A DNA stretch of 64,000 nt from Bdellovibrionales bacterium. GTDB lineage: Bacteria > Bdellovibrionota > Bdellovibrionia > Bdellovibrionales > UBA1609. The stretch spans positions 71,439 through 135,438 of the forward strand of contig JAYUKW010000031.1 of NCBI GenBank assembly GCA_043764155.1, in the 5' to 3' direction. This document shows, in pieces, positions 1,267 through 61,634 of this stretch; positions within the stretch are counted from its first letter, which is position 1; each line of letters begins with the position of its first letter. The position numbers were made by a program, and so were the translations under genes. The notes beneath the pieces are model-generated. The model worked only from the letters and a program-made list of their open reading frames with translations. It was not told the origin of the DNA and searched no databases.

Positions 1267-1596
1267 ATGAAAATAATAATTTTTGTATCAATGCTTTTGA
1301 TTGCTTCAAATGTTCTAGCTGATGAATCTACATGTAACACTGAAGTGAAAATTAACTCTAAGGATAATTCAGCATCAACGACGATCTATGGAGATGCGGC
1401 TAAAGCCATATATGAGTCTATGATTAAAGTACCTGAGTCTGATGGTGGCGGTATGGATAGCTTAGTTACAATAAAAAAAGGTCAATACGTAGAGTGCACT
1501 AAAGACGATCATATCTCTGGTGTTTCGTACTATTGCGTTTTGACAATAAACAGTGATGGTACTGTTGCTGTTAAAAATTTTATATTGAAAATTTAG
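1267..1596 (+). CDS. Small secreted hypothetical protein
   Basis: 109 aa. Signal-peptide-like N-terminus MKIIIFVSMLLIASNVLA. GGAG-type RBS (aatggag) upstream. Confidence 0.55.
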   Translation: MKIIIFVSMLLIASNVLADESTCNTEVKINSKDNSASTTIYGDAAKAIYESMIKVPESDGGGMDSLVTIKKGQYVECTKDDHISGVSYYCVLTINSDGTVAVKNFILKI

Positions 1597-1696
1597 TGTT
1601 ATTAAATCCCTTATTTAATTTCCAAGACTTGTGCACTAAATCACAGGCTTTCTATTTAGATTCATCCGGCTTGGTTATTAACACGACCCCTAATAT

Positions 1697-1759
1697 GAAC
1701 TGACTTAATTCTATAGATTGAAGCTTTGCAAGCTTCAATCTATAGAATTAGGTCAGTTC
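1697..1759. terminator. 63-nt hairpin (30-nt arms, 1 mismatch) with tip GAAGCTT-TGC-AAGCTTC
   Basis: gaactgacttaattctatagattgaagctt / aagcttcaatctatagaattaggtcagttc, read directly. It is downstream of ORF 1267-1596, and a second short stem CTGCTT/AAGCAG follows. Confidence 0.5.
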
Positions 1760-1827
1760 TGCTTTTGAAGCAGCTCTACCGATGACAAATCATCCGTTTT
1801 TTGATTAAAATAATTTTTGGAGAAAAA

Positions 1828-2274
1828 ATGAGTGATTTTAAATTAATTAATCTTACAGCTCTTTATTATAGCAAAATTGTAAAGTCCTTAAAATATTTAG
1901 AGTACAGCTATAACAGAACTTTAAAAATGCCATTAGATCCAATTTTAATGAATGATAGCGAGCTTGAAGCTTGGGATAGCTTCGCTTCTCGATTTGCCAG
2001 AAGTTCAGATATTTTTTTAAGTAAATTCTTAAAAGCGTATTTAATTAAAGACGATCCTGCCTTTGATGGTAGCTTTAAAGATACTCTGAACAGATCAGAA
2101 AAGCTGGGGTTGATAGAAAATGTAGAGACTTGGATGGAAATTAGACAACTAAGAAACGCTACTGTTCACGAATACAGTGACTCTGATTTAAAGATTATTT
2201 TTAGTAAATTCAGACAATTCACCCCACTCATTTTAGACTTAAGAACTAAACTCTCAAATGCGTCTCAATCTTAA
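1828..2274 (+). CDS. HEPN-domain protein, HepT-like (DUF86-type) putative toxin
   Basis: Rx4H motif followed by Y (LRNATVHEY). ATG at 1828 is preceded by GGAG; the track ORF starts at TTG 1801. Overlaps the downstream nucleotidyltransferase gene by 17 nt. Confidence 0.7.
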   Translation: MSDFKLINLTALYYSKIVKSLKYLEYSYNRTLKMPLDPILMNDSELEAWDSFASRFARSSDIFLSKFLKAYLIKDDPAFDGSFKDTLNRSEKLGLIENVETWMEIRQLRNATVHEYSDSDLKIIFSKFRQFTPLILDLRTKLSNASQS

Positions 2275-2566
2275 AGAAATCGCCATTATTCAGAAGGCCT
2301 TTAGAACTATTTTTCAGAAAAACAGTTTTAAACTTTATTTATTTGGCAGCAGAACAGACAATAACAAAAAAGGTGGAGATATAGATCTACTTGTTTTGGT
2401 TGATCAAAATGATAAACAAATATTTATTGATGGAAAAATAAAAATCTTAAAAGCAATTTTTGAAGATCTAGATGAACAAAAAATAGATATTACAGTAGTA
2501 ACTCATACAGAATTAAATTCAGACTTTTTTCTTAAAATCATTTCAAAATCTATGATAGAGCTTTGA
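2258..2566 (+). CDS. Minimal nucleotidyltransferase, MntA-like putative antitoxin
   Basis: Pol-beta NTase signature LFGSRTDNNKKGGDIDLLVLV (GS..., DxD). 102 aa. Confidence 0.75.
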   Translation: MRLNLKEIAIIQKAFRTIFQKNSFKLYLFGSRTDNNKKGGDIDLLVLVDQNDKQIFIDGKIKILKAIFEDLDEQKIDITVVTHTELNSDFFLKIISKSMIEL

Positions 2567-2641
2567 TTTCATCTATTTTTCAACCCCTGTATTTAAATTC
2601 AAACACAATGTGACCTAATTAATTTAAATTATTAAGACTTA

Positions 2642-3307
2642 ATGCCTGGTTTCAAAGGATTTGCTGGAATTAAATCCGTGGTCTGTTTTGCCTTAAGTCT
2701 GGCAGACCTGGGTCTTGATGTTGAACTCAGTTCAATTATGATAAATGTAATGCAAACATTAAAAGATAAAAAAATCAGATCAAAACCCTACTCTTTAAAT
2801 AAGAATAAATATTTGCTCGACTTTGAGTTTGATAAATTAAATCAGATTTTAACTAGCTTTGAAGATCAAGACATTAGAAATGTTTTAATACTTAAACTGG
2901 CACTATCAACAGGTGCTAGAGCAACCGAGCTTTTAAACATTAAGATTAATGATTTGGATATCAAATCTAAGTCAGTATTTATCTACGGTATTAAGGGCAG
3001 CAATGACCGAGAAATACCCCTTGAGACAAAGCTTTTTGTAAGCCTTCAAAAGTTTATTCAAACCGAAGGGAAAAGTGAACGGCTTTTTGAAATCTCGTAT
3101 CCCCGACTTGTACAAATTTGGCTTAACTATAGGCCTGTTCAAAAATCATTTCATGCCTTACGACATACGTTTGCCATACGTCTATACAAAAAAACTCGGG
3201 ATATACGTCTGCTTCAGTTTGCCTTAGGTCATAGAAATATCGCGAACACTATGATTTATGCTGACTATGTTTATTCTCAAGAGGAATTAAGACGACTTAT
3301 TCTTTAA
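2642..3307 (+). CDS. Tyrosine recombinase/integrase, catalytic domain only
   Basis: R-H-R-Y catalytic set: GARATEL, HALRHTF, LGHRN, MIYADY. The likely real start is ATG 2738 or 2750. There is no room for an N-terminal core-binding domain. Confidence 0.8.
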   Translation: MPGFKGFAGIKSVVCFALSLADLGLDVELSSIMINVMQTLKDKKIRSKPYSLNKNKYLLDFEFDKLNQILTSFEDQDIRNVLILKLALSTGARATELLNIKINDLDIKSKSVFIYGIKGSNDREIPLETKLFVSLQKFIQTEGKSERLFEISYPRLVQIWLNYRPVQKSFHALRHTFAIRLYKKTRDIRLLQFALGHRNIANTMIYADYVYSQEELRRLIL

Positions 3308-3446
3308 ATATTAATCCTATCTTTTATCTAATCAGGTTATCACTTTAATTTAGCGACTTAAGATTGTTTTACTTTAGATTACAAATCTTGACTAAAATCT
3401 AATATAATTTTCTAGCCATAAAATTTGGAATTGATACTATAAATTT

Positions 3447-3728
3447 ATGACTTCAGAAAAATTTCAAATCTTTAAAGACCGTGTTCAAGTGTATTTAGAC
3501 TGTAGCGCTTTTGACGTCAAAGCGCTTAAAGCTAATCTTGAAACCCCATCTAACACAGAGCTTTTAAAAATATTTAAAACTGAACTTCTTACGGCCATTC
3601 AGTCTGACACTCTGGATAGACATGTATACGAAGAGCTAACAGGTTTAGATTTTGACGATGATTTATCTTACAAGGACTACCTTCAAGTCATTTACAATTA
3701 TTTATTTGCTGGCGGCGCACAACCTTAG
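3447..3728 (+). CDS. Hypothetical protein (acidic, 93 aa)
   Basis: ORF only. No motif recognised. Confidence 0.4.
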   Translation: MTSEKFQIFKDRVQVYLDCSAFDVKALKANLETPSNTELLKIFKTELLTAIQSDTLDRHVYEELTGLDFDDDLSYKDYLQVIYNYLFAGGAQP

Positions 3729-3734
3729 GTATCG

Positions 3735-4034
3735 TTAAGCTTGTTTTTTTATAATTTCCTCTGAAGTGGCATATTCAATCGCTTGAAAAATATGAATTTC
3801 AAAGCGGGTTGACCAGGTTATGTTATATCCACCTTCAGTCGCAAAGACTTTATTCCATTCATCTTGATTTTTTGGAAAGCATTTAACTTTTTTAAAAAAA
3901 GAAAGGTCAGAGATATATTTTTTACCCTCCGTAGTTTCAAACTCAATTTTAGGATACTTCAAAGAAGTAACGTTTTTGACTAATATATTGGCTTGATCTA
4001 TGGCAAATCCTCTCCTTGTATAGCTTTGTTCCAA
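3735..4034 (-). CDS. DUF2442-like small protein
   Basis: The pattern ILVKNVTSLKYPKIEFETTEGKKYISDLSFF fits my recollection of DUF2442. TTG start. Sits directly downstream of a DUF4160-like remnant, the usual partner. Confidence 0.45.
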   Translation of the reverse strand: MEQSYTRRGFAIDQANILVKNVTSLKYPKIEFETTEGKKYISDLSFFKKVKCFPKNQDEWNKVFATEGGYNITWSTRFEIHIFQAIEYATSEEIIKKQA

Positions 4035-4212
4035 GCTTCCTTAAGTTCTAAAATTCTTTTGTAAGTTTCGTTGCTCTAGTACCAATATTACCATTTAGTA
4101 AATTTCCTTCTAAATCAAAAACCGCCCATTCGTTTTGATATTTAACGTGAATATGAGGATTTTTATGTTTATTCACATCAAACCAATACATATAAACAAC
4201 GATTCCAAACAA
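3998..4212 (-). pseudogene. DUF4160-like gene, apparently frameshifted and lacking an ATG start
   Basis: Minus-strand translation gives (T)ELFGIVVYMYWFDVNKHKNPHIHVKYQNEWAVFDLEGNLLNGNIGTRATKLTKEF*. The expected C-terminus KRILELKEAWNKAIQGEDLP* continues in another frame after the T4/A4 run at 4057-4060. Only a TTG (4210-4212) is available as a start. Confidence 0.4.
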
Positions 4213-4266
4213 TTCAGTTTGAAAATTATAGCCTGATTCTGTGAAAGGCTTTATTTTAAATACGAA

Positions 4267-4818
4267 ATGAGCTATTTCTACCTCATGTCAAAACTACGTC
4301 TTATCAATCTGAGCGAAATCAACGAATCTAAAAAAACTTTTACATTCGATAGTATCGAATCTTTAGGTGGTGATTCAGGAGAATTCCAACTTAAAAGCCT
4401 GAACCTAAACTTAAGTATTCAGGATGCTGGGGATGGCTATTATGTTTCCGGTGAACTTAAAATTTTAAGACAGTACCCATGCACTCTTTGTAGCTTCGAG
4501 GCTGATCTGGCTCAAAATATAAAATTTGACGAGTTCATTCGTGTCGACCCAAGCTTTGACGCTGATTCTGAATTGGTAGCAAAAAGTGACGAATCAGAAT
4601 CTCTAGTAATTAAATCCCACGTTTGGGATCTTTTAGAATTCATCAGAGAAACTATTTATCTTGAAGAGCCCGTACAGTTTTACCCTAAGGGTCAAGAATG
4701 CAAAACCAAATGCCCCAACTACTTAGAATTAGTCTCCAAAGGGATTTTGATCGATTCAGAAGAAGCTAAACCGGCCTCTGCTTTTGATAAGCTTAAGAAT
4801 TTTCAATTCAAAGGTTGA
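4267..4818 (+). CDS. yceD: YceD/DUF177 family protein (23S rRNA accumulation protein)
   Basis: Conserved position immediately upstream of rpmF. Paired Cys motifs CTLC and CKTKC. Acidic 183-aa protein. Confidence 0.7.
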   Translation: MSYFYLMSKLRLINLSEINESKKTFTFDSIESLGGDSGEFQLKSLNLNLSIQDAGDGYYVSGELKILRQYPCTLCSFEADLAQNIKFDEFIRVDPSFDADSELVAKSDESESLVIKSHVWDLLEFIRETIYLEEPVQFYPKGQECKTKCPNYLELVSKGILIDSEEAKPASAFDKLKNFQFKG

Positions 4819-7077: not shown

Positions 7078-7821
7078 ATGGATTTAAAAAATAAAAATAT
7101 TTTTATAACAGGTTCTAGCCGTGGAATTGGTGCGGGCATTGCTTTGAAGCTTGCAACCATGGGCGCTAAGGTCACCATCACTTATTTAAAAAATAAAGAC
7201 GAAGCTGATATAGTTTTTCAAGATCTGCCAGGCGAAGGGCATTTATTACTGGCCTTAGATGTTAATGATGAAGAGTCCGTCAAAGAAGCTACAGATTTGG
7301 CGATCAAAGAATGGAGTGGCAAAATTGATGGGCTAGTTAATAACGCCGGGATCACCCGCGATCAGCTGCTTTTAAGGATGAAAAAAGAAGATTTTGATGA
7401 TGTGTACTCGACAAATTTACGTGGATCTTTTTACACAACCAAAATGCTTTTAAAGTCCATGATGAAGTTGAGAAAAGGATCTATCGTAAATATTTCTAGC
7501 GTTGTTGGTCAAATGGGCAACGCAGGGCAGTCAAATTACTCGGCGACCAAGGCAGGATTAGAAGCTTTTTCAAGATCTATTGCCAGAGAAATTGGCTCTC
7601 GAAATATTCGAGTCAATGCCATTGCCCCTGGTTTTATTCAGACCGACATGACGGACGAGCTTTCAGAGGCTCAAAAGCAAGCTTTGATTAAAGATTTACC
7701 ACTTGGACGCTTAGGGCAAGTGGATGATGTTGCTGAAAGTGTAGCCTTTTTGTTAAGCGATGCTTCCTCGTATATCACTGGACACACGCTTCACGTTAAT
7801 GGTGGAATGTTCATGAATTAA
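7078..7821 (+). CDS. fabG: 3-oxoacyl-ACP reductase (SDR)
   Basis: TGSSRGIG cofactor motif, NNAG, YSATKAG (YxxxK). Confidence 0.95.
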
Positions 7822-7883
7822 ATTATAACTATATAAAAACTAGGAGAACTAAAATGTTAGAAACAAAAAATAATGGAGGAGTT

Positions 7884-8117
7884 ATGTCATTGGATCCAAA
7901 AATTAAGAAGATCATCGAAGATCAGTTAGGTGTTGAAGGTGATAAAGTCACTCCAAACGCTTCATTCATTGATGATTTAGGCGCTGACAGTCTTGATATC
8001 GTTGAGCTGGTTATGGCTATGGAAGAAGAATTTGACATGGAAATTCCAGATGAAGACGCTGAAAAATTAAAAACTGTTCAGAACGTTATGGATTATATCC
8101 AGAGCAAAAAAGGGTAA
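7884..8117 (+). CDS. acpP: Acyl carrier protein
   Basis: [19 protein letters not shown] phosphopantetheine site. ATG 7884 is preceded by GGAGGA; the track ORF starts upstream at 7854. Confidence 0.95.
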
Positions 8118-12094: not shown

Positions 12095-12589
12095 ATGAAA
12101 AAACTTTGGTCGTCTTTAAAATTGTTGATAGTTTTTGTTATTTTTATGGCCTTCGGGGCTATAGTTGTTGTGTATTACCCTTGGCTTTTTGGTAAAAATG
12201 TTAAGGGTGAAATCATTGAAGTTGAACGCGTAACCATGCCCAGCACTGTGATTGGTTCAGTGAACAAATTCCAGATGCATTCTTATGCTGTTTTAATTCA
12301 AGATGATAAAGGCGAGATGTTCACATCAAGTTCTGAAGACCGTCGATGGGAAGTGGCTAAAAAAGGGATGTGTGTAGTGTCCTTATTTTATCGTCATCCA
12401 CCATGGAGACTTCAATCAGCTGGGACATTTTATAATGCTAGAGTTCAAAAGATTTTTCGATGCCCGGGGAAAGACTATTCAACTGAAAGTAATTCTACCA
12501 AAGATAGTTTTAATGATAATTCGACAGATATAAATAATGATGAAGCCACTGTTGAATCTTCTAATAAACCTATAGAGGTTGAAAAATGA
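12095..12589 (+). CDS. Membrane-anchored hypothetical protein
   Basis: N-terminal TM helix [23 protein letters not shown]. Overlaps the glyA start by 4 nt. Confidence 0.5.
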
Positions 12590-14645: not shown

Positions 14646-15143
14646 ATGCACATGTTTAGAACTCAACAGCTTTTTATTTTGTTTATTGGCCTATCCCAGT
14701 GTGTACAGTCCTCGAATAGAAATATAATTGAGCCTCAGATCACTATGATGTCCGGTTGGGTGTCCCCTGTTGAACCCAATGTCACCTTGACCCAAAAATT
14801 TAGACCAAAGTACAACTCCAAACATAAGGGCGTCGATTTAGCCGGTAAAATGAACCAGCCTTTATTTGCCACTAATAGTGGTGTTGTAACCTATAAAGGC
14901 GACAAATTTAGAGGCTACGGTAAAATGATTTTACTTGAGCACAGCGAAGGCTGGACTTCGCTGTACTCACATCTATCAAAATTTAATGTCGATAACGGCG
15001 ATAAAGTTTATGCGGGACAAGTTATTGGATATATGGGACGAAGCGGACGCGCGTCTGGTGTGCATCTGCACTTTGAAGTTTATAAAAACAAAATCCCTAT
15101 AGATCCCCTAAGAGTCGTCCCAATCCGATACAAATTTAAGTAG
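14646..15143 (+). CDS. M23 (LytM-type) metallopeptidase
   Basis: HKGVDLAG and GVHLHFEV zinc-ligand motifs. Signal peptide present. Confidence 0.85.
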   Translation: MHMFRTQQLFILFIGLSQCVQSSNRNIIEPQITMMSGWVSPVEPNVTLTQKFRPKYNSKHKGVDLAGKMNQPLFATNSGVVTYKGDKFRGYGKMILLEHSEGWTSLYSHLSKFNVDNGDKVYAGQVIGYMGRSGRASGVHLHFEVYKNKIPIDPLRVVPIRYKFK

Positions 15144-15519
15144 TACTTATTTAGATCTTAATTATGACTTCAAATTTCAAAATAACTCTAAGTCTTTCCT
15201 TATAATTTTAATATAGGCGAAGCCTTGTCATTTGCCCTGCAGCTCGAGAACTCCAAAAAATATATTTTAATTTAAGATCCTTGAGATGATTTATAATAGG
15301 CTCGTTGGCATGAAGCCTTGCGGTTTTTTGCAAGGCAAATGACAAGGTCTGTCCTATTATAAATCATCTCAAGGATCTTAAATTAAAATATATTTTTTGG
15401 AGTTCTCGAGCAAGGCTTCGTGCCAACGAGCCTATATTAATATTATAAAGAAAGACTTAGAGTTATTTTGAAATTTGAAGTCATAATTAAGATCTAAATA
15501 AGTACTACTTAAATTTGTA
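15129..15519. repeat. Nested giant palindromic element (outer unit with a split core, plus a complete inner unit)
   Basis: Outer arms 15129-15217 / 15431-15519 (89 nt, 2 mismatches). Inner arms 15243-15300 / 15353-15410 (58 nt, perfect). Inner core 15301-15352. Outer half-cores 15218-15242 and 15411-15430. All verified base by base. Confidence 0.9.
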
Positions 15520-15541: not shown

Positions 15542-16267
15542 TTATCCAACAAGAATGATGTGATTGTCTTTAGAGTTCACTTTCATGATGTCACTTCTAC
15601 GGATGCCTAGGTTAACGAAGTCGATTTGGGATTCCATGGATTCAAGTATTTTCATTTGATTATAAATTTTAGTTACTTCTTTTCTAATAAAATTTAAGAT
15701 CTGTGTTTTATATTTAGGTCTAAGTGCGACAAACTTGACGCTAAATGTTTCGCTTTCATTTTGACCATTTACGATACTTAACTTATCTATTCTTAAAATT
15801 TCTGCGGAGGCATTAAAAGATTTCATCTTAAGTTTTGAATGGTACGGAAAGTGAACTTTAATTTTATCCTTCATCATTAATTTACCAAAAGGAAGTTCGA
15901 TACGGGCTCCGCCGGCACTGAGCTGTTTACATTTACCTTGGATCACTTCCCCATTTTTAATGATCACAATTGAAGAGCTATCTAATTCAATACGAACATG
16001 AGATCTGATTTTCTGATGTTCAGATCTAGGGCTGTAAGTAGTCAAAAAGGCGTCTACTTCTTTTGAGTTAAAACATTCAAGCTCGGTCATTTTAACCCAA
16101 TCTGTATGCTCGTTGGTTCTAACGTACTGGTGACGAGTTAAACTCTTGGCTTGAAGCATTAAACATAATTCAGGATAACTGTAGGGCCCCAACCACCTTT
16201 GACCACATCTTAAATGCCATATTTGGCTTAAAAGCTTTATTTCGTGAGATGTTAAATAAACTTGCAT
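15542..16267 (-). CDS. GYF_2-domain plus PilZ-domain protein (putative c-di-GMP receptor)
   Basis: N-terminal WLGPYSYPELCLMLQAKSLTRHQYVRTNEHTDWVKM is GYF_2-like. PilZ motifs RSHVR (RxxxR) and QLSAGGA (D/NxSxxG-like). Confidence 0.7.
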   Translation of the reverse strand: MQVYLTSHEIKLLSQIWHLRCGQRWLGPYSYPELCLMLQAKSLTRHQYVRTNEHTDWVKMTELECFNSKEVDAFLTTYSPRSEHQKIRSHVRIELDSSSIVIIKNGEVIQGKCKQLSAGGARIELPFGKLMMKDKIKVHFPYHSKLKMKSFNASAEILRIDKLSIVNGQNESETFSVKFVALRPKYKTQILNFIRKEVTKIYNQMKILESMESQIDFVNLGIRRSDIMKVNSKDNHIILVG

Positions 16268-26696: not shown

Positions 26697-26826
26697 AACC
26701 CCGAAAGGTGCCAGGTTCCGTTTGAGAATTAAAGCTGTTTATTTAGATTTAATAATTGATATATTCCCTTTTAGATCATTCTAAATTGATTTAATTCTCA
26801 AACGGAACCTGGCACCTTTCGGGGTT
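26697..26826. repeat. Perfect 37-nt inverted repeat with a 56-nt spacer (terminator-like or structured RNA)
   Basis: aaccccgaaaggtgccaggttccgtttgagaattaaa at 26697-26733 and its exact reverse complement at 26790-26826. Starts 9 nt past the RND gene stop. Confidence 0.85.
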
Positions 26827-35017: not shown

Positions 35018-35190
35018 TCTAAGAAAACCTCCAGTAGATTTATTTAAACTTAAAAGATATTTGATATTTAAAACAGGCGAGACCTTGTCATTTGCTTTGC
35101 AAAAAAATTGCAAAGCTGTATGCCAACGAGCCTGTTTTAAATATCAAATATCTTTTAAGTTTAAATAAATCTACTGGAGGTTTTCTTAGA
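35018..35190. repeat. Giant hairpin element, copy B (60-nt perfect arms plus 53-nt conserved core)
   Basis: Arms 35018-35077 / 35131-35190 are exact reverse complements. Core 35078-35130 is CGAGACCTTGTCATTTGCTTTGCAAAAAAATTGCAAAGCTGTATGCCAACGAG. The element ends 1 nt from the guaA stop. Confidence 0.9.
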
Positions 35191-35191
35191 C

Positions 35192-36715
35192 CTACTCCCA
35201 CTCAATAGTTCCCGGAGGTTTGCTACTGACATCATAAACCACGCGGTTCACACCTTTGACTTCATTTGTAATACGATTTGAAACTCTGGATAAAAATTCA
35301 AATTCGAAGGGATACCAATGGGCAGTCATACCATCGACAGAGGTGACTGCTCTTAAAGCCACAACCTTATCATAGGTTCTAGAGTCCCCTTGCACACCAA
35401 CAGCTCGGATAGGAAGTAAGACAGCAAAGGCTTGCCAGATTTTATCATAAAGGCCGGCCTTTCTAATTTCATCTATGTAAACGGCATCGGCCTCTTGAAG
35501 AATTTTAACATCTTCAGGGTGAATCTCGCCTAAAATACGAATCCCTAAACCTGGTCCTGGGAAGGGATGACGATCAATTAAGTACGCCGGCATATCTAAG
35601 GCTTTCCCGATTCTTCGAACTTCATCTTTAAATAAATCACGAAGTGGTTCGATCAATTTTAAATTTAAATCTTTAGGCAACCCACCGACATTGTGATGGG
35701 ATTTAATAGTCACACTCGATCCGGTTGGCGATACACTTTCAATCACATCAGGGTAAAGAGTTCCTTGAGCCAACCACTTAATATTTTTATCTTTAGGAAT
35801 TTGTGCTTTGAAAACTTTAATAAATGTATGTCCTATCGCAATTCGTTTCTCTTCAGGATCAGATTTTCCTTTTAAGGCATCAAAGAAATCTTTTTCAGCT
35901 CTCACTCCTTTTACATTTAGACCTAAGCCATCATAGGATTTTAAAACCTCATCGAATTCATTTTTTCTAAGTAAACCCGTATCGACAAAAACACACATGA
36001 CTCGATCAGGCCCAAATATTTTAGTAAGTATAGTGGCCGTTACACTTGAATCTACCCCACCGGATAAACCACACAAAATCACTTCATCGTCTTTAACTTC
36101 AGATTTATATTTATCCGTTAAACTTTGCAAAATTTCTTTGGGCTTCCATAATTTTTGAACTCGTGGAGTTTTTTGTAAAAATCTTTCGAACCACAAATGA
36201 CCATTTTCAGTGTGGGTCACTTCAGCATGAAACTGTAAACATAATATATTTTCAGATTCTAAAGCCGCGGGAAAACCGTTTTCGCTCACAGCAATCTGTT
36301 TTAATTCTTTTGGAATTTCAGAAATCACATCCCCATGGGACATCCAGACTTTTGAATTTTTTAAATCTGAAGTTTTTGAAATCACTTCTGAAAGACCGTA
36401 CTCACGATGATTAGAGCTTGTAACTTTGCCCCCAAGCTTGTGAACAATCAGCTGCATGCCGTAACAGACACCTAAGATTGGGGCTATCGCTAACAATTCA
36501 ACGATGTCCCGAACAAAGCCTTCTTTGTCTGTCACAGATCTAGGGCCACCGCTTAAAACAATTCCAGCAGGATGTCTGGATTTAATGATTTCAGTTTTAT
36601 AATTATAGGGATGGACTTCGGAGTAAATTCCCATTTCACGAAAACGTCTAGCGATTAATTGTGTGTACTGGGACCCAAAATCTAAAATTAAAATCCCTGA
36701 ATTTAAATTATCCAT
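35192..36715 (-). CDS. guaA: GMP synthase (glutamine-hydrolysing)
   Basis: GATase GVCYGMQL, PP-loop CGLSGGVDSSV, C-terminal KPPGTIEWE. Confidence 0.97.
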   Translation of the reverse strand: MDNLNSGILILDFGSQYTQLIARRFREMGIYSEVHPYNYKTEIIKSRHPAGIVLSGGPRSVTDKEGFVRDIVELLAIAPILGVCYGMQLIVHKLGGKVTSSNHREYGLSEVISKTSDLKNSKVWMSHGDVISEIPKELKQIAVSENGFPAALESENILCLQFHAEVTHTENGHLWFERFLQKTPRVQKLWKPKEILQSLTDKYKSEVKDDEVILCGLSGGVDSSVTATILTKIFGPDRVMCVFVDTGLLRKNEFDEVLKSYDGLGLNVKGVRAEKDFFDALKGKSDPEEKRIAIGHTFIKVFKAQIPKDKNIKWLAQGTLYPDVIESVSPTGSSVTIKSHHNVGGLPKDLNLKLIEPLRDLFKDEVRRIGKALDMPAYLIDRHPFPGPGLGIRILGEIHPEDVKILQEADAVYIDEIRKAGLYDKIWQAFAVLLPIRAVGVQGDSRTYDKVVALRAVTSVDGMTAHWYPFEFEFLSRVSNRITNEVKGVNRVVYDVSSKPPGTIEWE

Positions 36716-58735: not shown

Positions 58736-61246
58736 TTGATTGATTTACTTCAAATAAATAATGAAGAGGAAAACATTAAATTGATTCAGAAATTAAAAAT
58801 CTATTTATTATTTTTTTTCTGGATCTTTTTTTCGAATCCTATCTTAGCACAAGAAAAACCAACTAAAAAATCTGCTTTTAAATCTGTAAATAAATCTACA
58901 GATCAACTTAAAAATAATCCGCCAGATAAACTAAAGGCTAAAATCTCTGATCCAGCTTCTAATAAACCAACTGACAAAATTAACGACATTATTTATCAAG
59001 CCGATGTCATTCAAGCCGATCTAGACACTGGTAAGGCCATTTTAAAAGGTAATGTTATTATTTATTTTGAGGGTTATAAATTAACAGCCCCAGAAGCCGA
59101 GATCATCAAAGCAGAATCTAGATTCACAGCCAAGGGCGGAGTAAAAATTGAAAACTTGATGACCCAAATGACAGCAGATCATGTTGAAATCTTTTTTGAT
59201 AACAACACTGGAATTTTAAAAAATGCCCGCATTGAGTCTGGACAAATGTTACTTGAAGCCAAAGAGATTCGAAAACTTGATAAAGATGTTTTTGAAGCGG
59301 ATAATTCTTATTTCACAACTTGCGTGACATGTCCCCCACTCTGGAGGTTTGGTGCCCGAAAAATTAAAGCCGATATCAACAAGTATGTGGATATCAGATG
59401 GGCTAATCTGCAAGCTGGAAAAATTCCGATTCTTTGGATTCCAAGATTAATATTACCTGTAAATACCAGAAGAAAAACGGGCTTACTGCCGCCGGCTCCT
59501 GTGTTTTCAACTTCAAGGGGTCAGTTCGGTTTAGAGCAAGGATATTTTTGGGCCATTGCAGACAATAAAGATCTCACGTTTACTCCAACTATTTATTCTA
59601 AGTCTGGCGTGAAATCTGTCTTTAATTATCGACACGTATTTGATTCTCAAAGTCGCGCTGAAATTAATTTTGGATATTTAAAAGACAATGATTTTGAAAC
59701 TTATGACTTCAACGATAATAAAGAAACAACCAGAATCTTGAACCGGTGGTTTATAGATTTTAAAAACCAACTTTACTTACCAAATAATTTTATTCAAAAA
59801 TCCAATATTAGACTTTTTAGTGATTTACTTTATCTTTCAGACTTTCCAAATGAAGTCCAAGGTCAAAGAGACGCCAATGTGGAAAATCAAATTTCTTTAA
59901 TTAAGAACGAAGGTAAAAACCACTTTTCATCAGAAATAGTTTACAATATAAATTTACTAACTGAAGATTTTAAATCCGATAATTTAAATGCAGTCCACAG
60001 AACTCCGCAACTTAGATATTCAAGACTGAATTCAATATTATTAAAAAACTTTAGATTTAGTTTTGATACCGAGTATAATAAATTTAGCCGAAAGGGTTTG
60101 TCTTTTGACAATGTTCAGCTTCCTACCTTTCCTGCAACAGAACTTCCTAACGGTTTACCTAAAGACATTTTAACTGCAGGCAATGGTACTTTTGACCCTT
60201 CTTCTGGATTAATCAGATCCGGACATAGACTTTTTGTTCAACCTAAAATAGTAGGCTCATTTAACTTAGGCAAAAATTTTATTTTATTACCAAAATTAAG
60301 TTTTAATCAGGCTCTCTATGCTTTCTCTCCAGAGTTTGATTCTGGTTTCGCGGCAAATACGGATAATCTTCCTTATTCGGAGTCAGCCAACAGATCTTAC
60401 ATTGAAAGCGAACTTGAAATTAAAACTAAATTTTCAAAAGTTTTAAATGAAAACTGGAAGCATATTATTGAGCCTTCCATGTCCTACATTTACGGTGATT
60501 TATTATATGAAACGGACCATTTATTTTTTCAAGGGCCTAAAGGCTTGCCCTACTACAGAAGATTTCAGCCAATTAATGACTTAGACTTTTTTGATTATAA
60601 TCATGGTATTCAATTCGATTACTATGACAGAATCGAAGACACTCAAATAGTAAAATTCAGCTTACTTCAAACTTTACTTAGAAAAGACAAGACTTCGGAT
60701 GTCAGTTATTACAGCCAACCTGTCTTTTTTGAATTGTCTCAAAACTATGATTATTTAAACGCGAGAACAGCTAACCCCGACGCCTGGTCTACATTAAATG
60801 CATTAGTTAAGATTAAAACAAAACACATTGAAACCTTCACTCAAGCCGCCCATTTTCATAAAATCAAAGAGACCAATATTTCTACAAGATCTAAATACAT
60901 TTTTAAATCTGGAAATTTTTTATCTGCAAGCTACAAGAAAAATAATTTAATCAGTCGAACAAATGAAGTGGAGCTTCAGCAAGAATTTTTTGGAGCGGGA
61001 TTAGGATTAAAACTCCCATCAATAAGTTTATCTGGGGAACTTTTGTATTCGACTTATGATGATGAAATCCAGCAATGGCAAATGCGTGTTGGATATTCGC
61101 CGCCAGGTGAGTGTCTTGATATTTTCTTTAATGTTTATGACAACATCGATCGTCGACAAGCCAATACACCAGATATTAAATTTCAAATCACTTGGAACTT
61201 TGGCCAAGGCAATGAACGCCCTGCCGACATCCAAGCCGTCTTTTAA
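58736..61246 (+). CDS. lptD: LPS-assembly outer-membrane protein LptD (OstA family)
   Basis: OstA-N-like segment (ADVIQADLDTGKAILKGNVIIYFEGYKLTA) and a large C-terminal beta-barrel. There is no ATG start: candidates are TTG 58736 or, more plausibly, TTG 58781 after GAGGA, which gives signal peptide IQKLKIYLLFFFWIFFSNPILA. Confidence 0.85.
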   Translation: MIDLLQINNEEENIKLIQKLKIYLLFFFWIFFSNPILAQEKPTKKSAFKSVNKSTDQLKNNPPDKLKAKISDPASNKPTDKINDIIYQADVIQADLDTGKAILKGNVIIYFEGYKLTAPEAEIIKAESRFTAKGGVKIENLMTQMTADHVEIFFDNNTGILKNARIESGQMLLEAKEIRKLDKDVFEADNSYFTTCVTCPPLWRFGARKIKADINKYVDIRWANLQAGKIPILWIPRLILPVNTRRKTGLLPPAPVFSTSRGQFGLEQGYFWAIADNKDLTFTPTIYSKSGVKSVFNYRHVFDSQSRAEINFGYLKDNDFETYDFNDNKETTRILNRWFIDFKNQLYLPNNFIQKSNIRLFSDLLYLSDFPNEVQGQRDANVENQISLIKNEGKNHFSSEIVYNINLLTEDFKSDNLNAVHRTPQLRYSRLNSILLKNFRFSFDTEYNKFSRKGLSFDNVQLPTFPATELPNGLPKDILTAGNGTFDPSSGLIRSGHRLFVQPKIVGSFNLGKNFILLPKLSFNQALYAFSPEFDSGFAANTDNLPYSESANRSYIESELEIKTKFSKVLNENWKHIIEPSMSYIYGDLLYETDHLFFQGPKGLPYYRRFQPINDLDFFDYNHGIQFDYYDRIEDTQIVKFSLLQTLLRKDKTSDVSYYSQPVFFELSQNYDYLNARTANPDAWSTLNALVKIKTKHIETFTQAAHFHKIKETNISTRSKYIFKSGNFLSASYKKNNLISRTNEVELQQEFFGAGLGLKLPSISLSGELLYSTYDDEIQQWQMRVGYSPPGECLDIFFNVYDNIDRRQANTPDIKFQITWNFGQGNERPADIQAVF

Positions 61247-61251
61247 TGCTT

Positions 61252-61394
61252 TAGATTAAGTTTTAACTTTATAAGTTATGTAATAAATAAACTAAGCGAA
61301 GCGAGTGTCACTCGCCTTGCAAAAAAACGGCAAGGCTTCGCGCCATCGAGCTTAGTTTTTTTATTACATAACTTAAAAGTTAAAACTTAATCTA
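61252..61394. repeat. Giant hairpin element, copy C (about 46-nt arms plus a diverged conserved core)
   Basis: Arms 61252-61297 / 61350-61394 (1 indel, 1 mismatch). Core GAAGCGAGTGTCACTCGCCTTGCAAAAAAACGGCAAGGCTTCGCGCCATCGA. Starts 6 nt after the lptD stop. Confidence 0.85.
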
Positions 61395-61634
61395 TAGAAT
61401 TAAAATCTACGTCTTATTATTAGTTAACTTAAGCCAAAACCGTCGGCTAATTTCTTTTGTATTTCTTTAAATCTATTTATCTTTAAAAGAACCCATGGTT
61501 TTGGACAAAGTTACTTCATTGTTCGTTACGAAGGAAAGATAAGGTAAAACAATATTGTTATTGCACTGATTAAATCTTTAGATCGAAGAGCGTTGTTTGG
61601 TTTTTTATTTTTACTAAATCTACTTTTAAAAACT

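Follow-up and report, generated by a model that had tools for sequence, protein, structure and literature searches.

How does a long, nearly perfect DNA palindrome come to contain the end of the gene beside it? This question is raised by a locus in a Bdellovibrionales genome, of which a stretch of 64,000 nucleotides (hereafter the window) was analysed. ORF 14646..15143 (plus strand) encodes a Peptidase_M23 protein (Pfam PF01551, E = 2e-32). A repeat search of the window finds two outer arms of a palindrome, palindrome A, at 15129-15218 and 15430-15519. They are 90 nt long and complementary at 88 of 90 positions (98%), the two mismatches being 15199/15449 and 15207/15441, and the pairing breaks off sharply beyond 15129 and 15519. 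The left arm consists of the native gene end followed by 75 nt of 3′ flank: positions 15129-15143, TACAAATTTAAGTAG, read Tyr-Lys-Phe-Lys-stop (TAC AAA TTT AAG TAG). The right arm is the inverted copy and ends, at 15505-15519, with the reverse complement of these last four codons and stop (CTACTTAAATTTGTA). The first-pass annotation had already seen that the left arm starts inside the M23 gene and that the same 15 nt return inverted at 15505-15519, and both points are confirmed in the sequence. It was also right to place the gene end and stop in the arm, but the arm takes in four codons (Y-K-F-K), not the three it had counted. On the far side, only 22 unique nt separate the palindrome from the stop of a convergent PilZ/GYF gene (15542..16267, minus strand; identified by Pfam and sequence).

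The centre of palindrome A is occupied by members of a small repeat family. Every unit of this family consists of a conserved asymmetric core (an X half, a variable interior and a Y half) between two arms of 47-100 nt that are specific to the locus. The X half is about 25 nt and the Y half about 23 nt long, and together they close a 7-bp stem around the interior, which measures 6-9 nt in minimal copies, 35-70 nt in the units of ERZ25039505 and 170 nt in outer unit A. The last value reflects a two-level structure, in which an inner unit, arms and core, lies within the loop of the outer core and takes the place of nearly all of its A-rich loop. The X half of the outer core is found at 15219-15241 (GAAGCCTTGTCATTTGCCCTGCA, plus strand) and its Y half at 15410-15429 (GCAAGGCTTCGTGCCAACGA, plus strand; pattern and HMM matches, alignment). 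Between them are the inner left arm (15242-15300), an intact inner core of 52 nt (15301-15352) and the inner right arm (15353-15411); the inner arms are 59 nt long, perfectly complementary, and unrelated to the local flanks. The inner core lies in the opposite orientation to the outer halves and reads, on the minus strand, ACAGACCTTGTCATTTGCCTTGC-AAAAAACC-GCAAGGCTTCATGCCAACGAG (X half, AAAAAACC loop, Y half). Folded as single-stranded DNA, a 411-nt stretch of this locus gives a single hairpin of -165 kcal/mol, compared with an average of -33 for shuffled sequences (z = -35).

Four units are present in the window (outer A, inner A, B and C) and eight in total over three related genomes. Pattern searches and an HMM place the core matches of the window at 15297-15355 (minus strand), 15215-15241 plus 15410-15434 (plus strand, split), 35075-35134 (plus strand) and 61295-61353 (plus strand), with 0 expected by chance. 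Unit B has its core at 35079-35129 (plus strand, pattern and HMM matches) between arms at 35018-35078 and 35130-35190, which are 61 nt long and 100% complementary, with a weak extension of the left arm to 35005. Unit C has its core at 61298-61349 (plus strand) between arms at 61241-61297 and 61350-61405, which are 93% complementary with one indel. The subtype of this core is also present in the unit of the Bdellovibrionales MAG JANODG010000016 (L002), whose core is at 7228-7283 and whose arms are at 7131-7230 and 7279-7375. Three diverged units come from a more distant relative, ERZ25039505 contig_2869, in loci that were fetched via homologues: L019 21985-22215, L019 19412-19593 and L020 649-995. 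Their X and Y halves align with the halves of the other members. At L020 896-987, the outer 31 nt of an X/Y-unit right arm are tandemly triplicated, while the left arm holds a single copy.

A scan of 185,579 species genomes with a degenerate core pattern returned one true match, L002. This pattern is too strict, for it missed the diverged L019 and L020 members, and the spread of the family is therefore underestimated. A match in a metagenome contig, L003, was discarded as a chance one inside a high-GC coding region. Viral contigs scanned with the same pattern gave no match, and neither did blastn of the core against phages and plasmids. There is no further X/Y unit in the 12.5 kb beyond the window, and about 250 kb of sequence contain no solo X or Y and no X/Y without arms.

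The arms of different units share no similarity, whereas the cores do. When every arm was searched by short-word blastn in about 220 kb of sequence from this genome and its relatives, only its own partner came up. The view of the first-pass annotation, that the centre is conserved and the arms are unique, the reverse of a classical MITE, is thus borne out by the arm searches and the X/Y alignments. The GC content of the arms (18-27%, compared with 39-56% in the cores and 34.8% in the window) fits spacer DNA. A candidate polarity rule, by which the native arm would always be on the X side, is true for A, C and L002 and is broken by B and L019 21985-22215, where the gene is on the Y side.

The pairing of the core hairpin is under constraint: 93% of the cells of the core stem are paired, four compensatory cells occur at two pairs, with double changes in B, L019b and L020a, and the covariation score was reached in 0 of 500 shuffles. 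These compensatory changes raise the possibility that the core is a conserved 3′-UTR motif of a functional structured RNA, with selection keeping the long stem paired and leaving its sequence free to differ between loci. The conservation of an asymmetric core between genomes whose spacer DNA cannot be aligned is consistent with such a role, as are the start of the stem, in most units at a stop codon or only a few nt away, and the weakening of the pairing of the B and L002 arms within coding sequence. However, there is no Rfam match and no canonical terminator, the orientation of the core with respect to the upstream gene varies (L019 21985-22215, unit B), and perfect stems of 60-90 bp far exceed what RNA function needs and would be RNase III substrates. 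Selection of this kind would leave the origin of the stem unexplained; it is compatible with a duplication of the flank and is not an alternative to it. As an account of the units we regard it as quite unlikely.

Long inverted repeats also invite the suspicion of inverted chimeras produced in amplification or assembly. Wherever ENA scaffolds 15 and 1195 overlap the window, they match it at 100% identity. Over 20 kb, two assemblies of the same sample differ only inside palindrome A (window 15410-15450, L001 10767-10815), where in scaffold_15 the reverse complement of X replaces Y and the right arm is perfectly complementary to the left. This difference is either a de Bruijn graph misassembly, that is, a wrong exit from the 59-nt perfect repeat, or a real arm-to-arm conversion, in which the left side has overwritten the right one in part of the population. 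In three independent assemblies, one contig ends 184 nt past the lptD stop (L017), another 15 nt past it (L018), and a third starts inside a palindrome centre (L006). X/Y-type palindromes seem to break short-read assemblies. The disagreement inside palindrome A and the broken contigs are what an artefact might leave behind, but the units are internal to contigs with unique genes on either side, and the palindromes recur in independent samples and projects (the window, the ENA scaffolds, the JANODG MAG, ERZ25039505, and L004 with an identical sequence in L005). Moreover, the conserved core that the X/Y units have in common, with its compensatory changes, is beyond what an artefact can make. We therefore consider an artefactual origin highly improbable.

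The next point is which of the two arms is the original one. At palindrome A it is the arm on the gene side. The C-terminus of the M23 protein, IPI[RKQ]YK[FS][KR], is kept in 12 homologues at 59-81% identity, including homologues that have no palindrome, and the M23 DNA of the window, L009 and L004 can be aligned as far as the stop codon and diverges directly after it. In L002 the arm takes in the last 15 codons of QueF plus the stop. This tail, VHKQKGYELPEDLMI, is kept in the 10 nearest homologues according to a homologue alignment (a PDB comparison left out the C-terminal tail), and the DNA of the L002 QueF end shares 96% identity with that of L013 over 23 nt. The inverted copy of this gene end in L002 carries a 3-nt deletion and two substitutions, and the gene copy retains the ancestral state. 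Since the changes lie in the inverted copy, the far arm of L002 is the derived one. At L002 7339-7375, the copy of the QueF end encodes the last 11 codons and the stop of a convergent downstream membrane-protein ORF (7339..7992). The 3-nt deletion is in frame for this ORF, which suggests that its new C-terminus is translated.

In some other X/Y units the overlap with the gene is shorter or absent. The arms of unit C and of L019a hold one codon plus the stop; in unit C the gene is lptD-like (stop at 61244-61246), and its final codon and stop open the left arm, an overlap of only 7 nt. The perfect 61 nt of the right arm of unit B end 1 nt short of the guaA stop codon (35192-35194; guaA is on the minus strand), and the further match into guaA (7/12) is not significant. 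When the non-coding part of the arms was compared with the spacers of relatives at M23, QueF and lptD, alignment scores were no better than those of shuffles; with proteins only 61-85% identical, this comparison carries no information. Of each arm, the non-coding three quarters are beyond tracing, because spacer DNA is unalignable at such divergence; within the coding part, the alignments identify the gene-side arm as native DNA and the opposite arm as a copy. The first-pass annotation had proposed that the arms are inverted duplications of the local flank. The native end of M23 and, more strongly, those of QueF (15 codons) and SHMT (7 codons, see below) agree with this proposal, which does not fit the inner-unit arms, as they are not local, and is little helped by guaA, where the arm is 1 nt short, and by lptD, with its 7 nt.

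These native ends also bear on an ordinary foldback or MITE-like transposon, whose arms would travel with the element, diverge fast and replace the ends of the target genes. The inner unit evidently came with its arms, and in L002 the downstream gene owes its last 11 codons and its stop to the arm copy, as such a transposon might do. But for the outer parts of the arms it is contradicted by what they encode, the native, conserved C-termini of M23, QueF and SHMT; no arm is found again in about 220 kb, and no target-site duplication is visible at the arm boundaries. A transposon of this ordinary kind therefore appears improbable.

Relatives without the element show what the M23 locus looks like in its absence. 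The spacer between the M23 and PilZ genes is 73 nt in L009 (80% M23 identity), where the best hairpin is a 12-nt stem, and 32 nt and 30 nt in L020 (61%) and L021 (68%), both palindrome-free. Neither a core nor a long inverted repeat is present in any of these three spacers, and the gene end is not repeated there in inverted form. The first-pass annotation had suggested looking in such relatives for a single arm; at 61-80% protein identity, the inverted copy is absent from all three spacers of 30-73 nt. These short palindrome-free spacers indicate that the 376-nt palindrome is a derived gain. A fourth relative, L004 (76%), has an extra lyase gene here, without a core. At the other genes, the lptD flank of L017, which belongs to the same MAG as L002, is free of a unit in 184 nt, and the QueF flanks of L011 and L013 hold a tRNA gene and no unit. 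Judged from these loci, the units sit at different places in different genomes.

Two of these flanks have features of their own. Directly after lptD in L019, where the window has unit C, there is a GC-rich 73-nt tandem repeat (12360-12516; 2.2 copies, 94% matches). In L011 (10480-10560) and L013 (10620-10700), the tRNA gene comes next after queF, and beyond it the gene content varies and includes toxin-antitoxin genes; this queF-tRNA region looks like an integration hot spot. The L002 MAG does not have the queF-tRNA arrangement.

The best explanation, in our opinion, is a dispersed family of small hairpins at which fold-back (template-switch) synthesis is nucleated by the core hairpin; we would put its probability at about 0.5. 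It is documented that template switching can perfect inverted repeats, create new ones and make existing ones larger (PMC5941160, PMC8794818, PMC13100816). First, a core would come into the short spacer directly downstream of a gene. Second, during replication or repair, the nascent strand that has passed the core would snap back on the core hairpin, that is, on the X/Y stem. Third, it would take itself or the sister strand as template, by snap-back or by template switching. Fourth, 50-100 nt of the newly made flank would be copied before the strand goes back to the original template. An inverted copy of the flank, with the last codons and the stop of the neighbouring gene, would thus be put in beyond the core, and the core would end up exactly in the middle of a long locus-specific palindrome. 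Further rounds of switching could then maintain the near-identity of the arms. The arms are 98-100% identical, as against a core difference of about 15% within one genome, which suggests homogenisation, an active maintenance of the arms.

A single switch and return at the same locus fits the arms of outer A, L002 and L004; the arms of inner A are not copies of the present flanks. No convincing microhomology is seen at the return point of palindrome A. The arms end within a few nt of a stop codon in four of nine palindromes, which plain random-length copying would not predict. In spacers of 30-73 nt, a copy of 50-100 nt is likely to reach the gene, and the clustering of arm ends near stops may come from pairing that is lost inside translated sequence, as in B and L002, where arm pairing degrades where the arm lies in coding sequence.

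The same construction exists with other centres. A palindrome at L004 6704-7022, identical in sequence in the second sample (L005), opens with KDFPIYS-stop, seven native codons of SHMT; the SHMT of the window ends in KDFPIYN-stop and has no palindrome. The L004 palindrome is nested, with outer arms of 49 nt, inner arms of 47 nt, asymmetric spacers of 16 and 8 nt between the levels and a GC-rich centre of 103 nt. It has no Rfam match, and the idea that its centre is a diverged X/Y core was dropped, as no X or Y is detectable in it. At L020 11795-11970, another palindrome takes in the end of an AcrB-like gene (last codon and stop), and its centre is unrelated to X/Y. Flank duplication is thus not strictly dependent on the X/Y core. 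The core stands at the exact centre of eight of about 10 long locus-specific palindromes.

Such palindromes with native gene ends and no core or another centre (L004 and L020) leave room for a different order of events, in which template switching that is independent of the core makes the palindromes first and an X/Y element or unit then enters the apex loop. The position of the inner unit, exactly in the hairpin loop of the outer core and replacing most of its A-rich loop, is what apex targeting would produce, and so is an X-Y interior that ranges from 6 to 170 nt; insertion sequences aimed at REP hairpins are known (PMC1525189). Yet with a central X/Y in eight of about 10 palindromes, nearly every pre-existing palindrome must have been hit, and the three relatives have no long hairpin at the M23-PilZ locus that could have served as the target, the 12-nt stem of L009 being the best. 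A maker of perfect palindromes of 50-100 nt from gene ends would still be required, and it would itself be unexplained. We consider this order of events unlikely and retain fold-back synthesis at the core as the preferred reading.

The inner unit of palindrome A adds a further element. What its arms adjoin at present are the two halves of the outer core, and they are copies of neither; a source for them was looked for in about 220 kb and no match was found. Since these arms are non-local, at least one unit must have moved, or have been captured, together with its arms. Either the inner unit arrived with its arms or it is cargo of the outer core; in both cases, the loop of a core can receive a whole unit, or a core with cargo. 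No enzyme, autonomous copy or target-site duplication was found for the X/Y units, and no transposase, reverse transcriptase or HUH gene in the window, where the sole recombinase is a 221-aa Phage_integrase ORF (2642-3307). This ORF belongs to a small island (ORFs 1267-4800), which also has a nucleotidyltransferase / substrate-binding pair and small DUF4160-type ORFs and is adjoined by a perfect 30-nt palindrome with a 3-nt loop (1697-1759).

More tentatively, and with more doubt than the fold-back reading itself, the X/Y core may be an undescribed type of mobile or self-propagating DNA, whose insertion is coupled to fold-back synthesis and writes an inverted "target duplication" of 50-100 nt of the adjacent gene end. 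It would in this way build long locus-specific palindromes, could rewrite the 3′ end of a neighbour (as in L002), and may move as a hairpin whose boundaries depend on structure and not on sequence. Most likely the units are selfish or neutral DNA. As a by-product they would place a very stable hairpin straight after a stop codon, and this predicted structure might help to define or protect the 3′ ends of transcripts.

It is usually through their conserved ends that interspersed repeats of bacteria are recognised. Repeat finders and annotation pipelines would miss the X/Y elements, because only a 50-nt centre is conserved. If the core nucleates flank duplication, these units would be a natural and recurrent case of snap-back or template-switch synthesis making long bacterial palindromes, and a source of new 3′-UTR hairpins and of altered C-termini, of which L002 is the one example. 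They would also offer a handle on how perfect palindromes of 60-90 bp, which are unstable in E. coli, are tolerated in these genomes.

The X/Y units match no MITE, REP/REPIN, attC, intrinsic terminator or Rfam family, a full-text literature search returned no description of such an element, and they are probably a new variant of palindromic interspersed repeat. With MITEs and foldback elements they share small size, a non-coding palindromic structure, multiple copies, a location in spacers by gene ends and nested insertion. In MITEs, however, the terminal repeats are conserved, the interior varies and target sites are duplicated, whereas the X/Y units have a conserved centre and unique local arms: the arms of the eight units have no sequence in common that could be terminal inverted repeats, and no direct repeat is present at the arm boundaries of A, C and L002. 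A repeat family of the conventional kind does occur in the window (26697-26826) and in L015 (16912-17041), with conserved arms (AAAGGTGCCAGGTTCCGTTTGRGAAT) and varying centres. Its copy in the window lies in the dnaE-acrB spacer, where L020 has a different long palindrome.

REP and REPIN sequences are likewise short extragenic hairpin repeats, often just past stop codons and usable as insertion targets. They are mobilised by RAYT transposases; a REP measures 20-40 nt and carries a GTAG or CGTC head, and a REPIN is a doublet of REPs in inverted orientation, with conserved arms (PMC3116915, PMC3733652, PMC2817692). The X and Y halves have neither a GTAG/CGTC head nor a doublet structure, the conserved part being the centre, and there is no RAYT or other transposase gene in the window. 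Integron attC sites resemble the X/Y units in their conserved outer boxes, which pair over an interior of variable length with unpaired bases, and in lying at the 3′ end of the upstream gene or overlapping it. They differ in having no long flanking palindrome derived from the gene end. RYYYAAC / GTTRRRY boxes are not recognisable at the ends of the core, the units are accompanied by neither an integrase nor a cassette array, and their neighbours are housekeeping genes (M23 peptidase, guaA, the lptD-like gene and queF). A scan for intrinsic terminators gave none at A or B and, at C, only two short stems inside the core. Unlike the U tract of an intrinsic terminator, the A/T run of the units lies in the loop and not after the stem. 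In Rfam, only a tRNA of the window reaches the gathering threshold, and the sub-threshold matches are generic long-hairpin miRNA models.

Hairpin repeats of organelles, such as the sponge RHEs (PMC2800124), the Volvox palindromes (PMC2670323) and the yeast GC clusters, are similar in being GC-richer, structured selfish elements that invade the AT-rich spacers of compact genomes, but their families are defined by conserved stems. To our knowledge, no report describes flank-derived arms in any of them.

The closest parallel is with template-switch (quasi-palindrome; Ripley model) or snap-back duplications. In these, too, a short hairpin nucleates an inverted copy of the sequence beside it, the arms become longer and more perfect, and stems can be made in one step. 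Where the gene end is traceable, the X/Y units have one native arm and, across a short hairpin, another that is its reverse complement, and the three relatives at 61-80% protein identity represent an ancestral state without the inverted copy. Two differences stand out. First, arms of 47-100 nt are far above the size of the usual bacterial events. Second, the nucleating hairpin is here a conserved sequence, asymmetric outside its 7-bp stem and present at many loci and in several genomes. What the X/Y units add to the known template-switch duplications is therefore a dispersed, conserved and asymmetric nucleating core.
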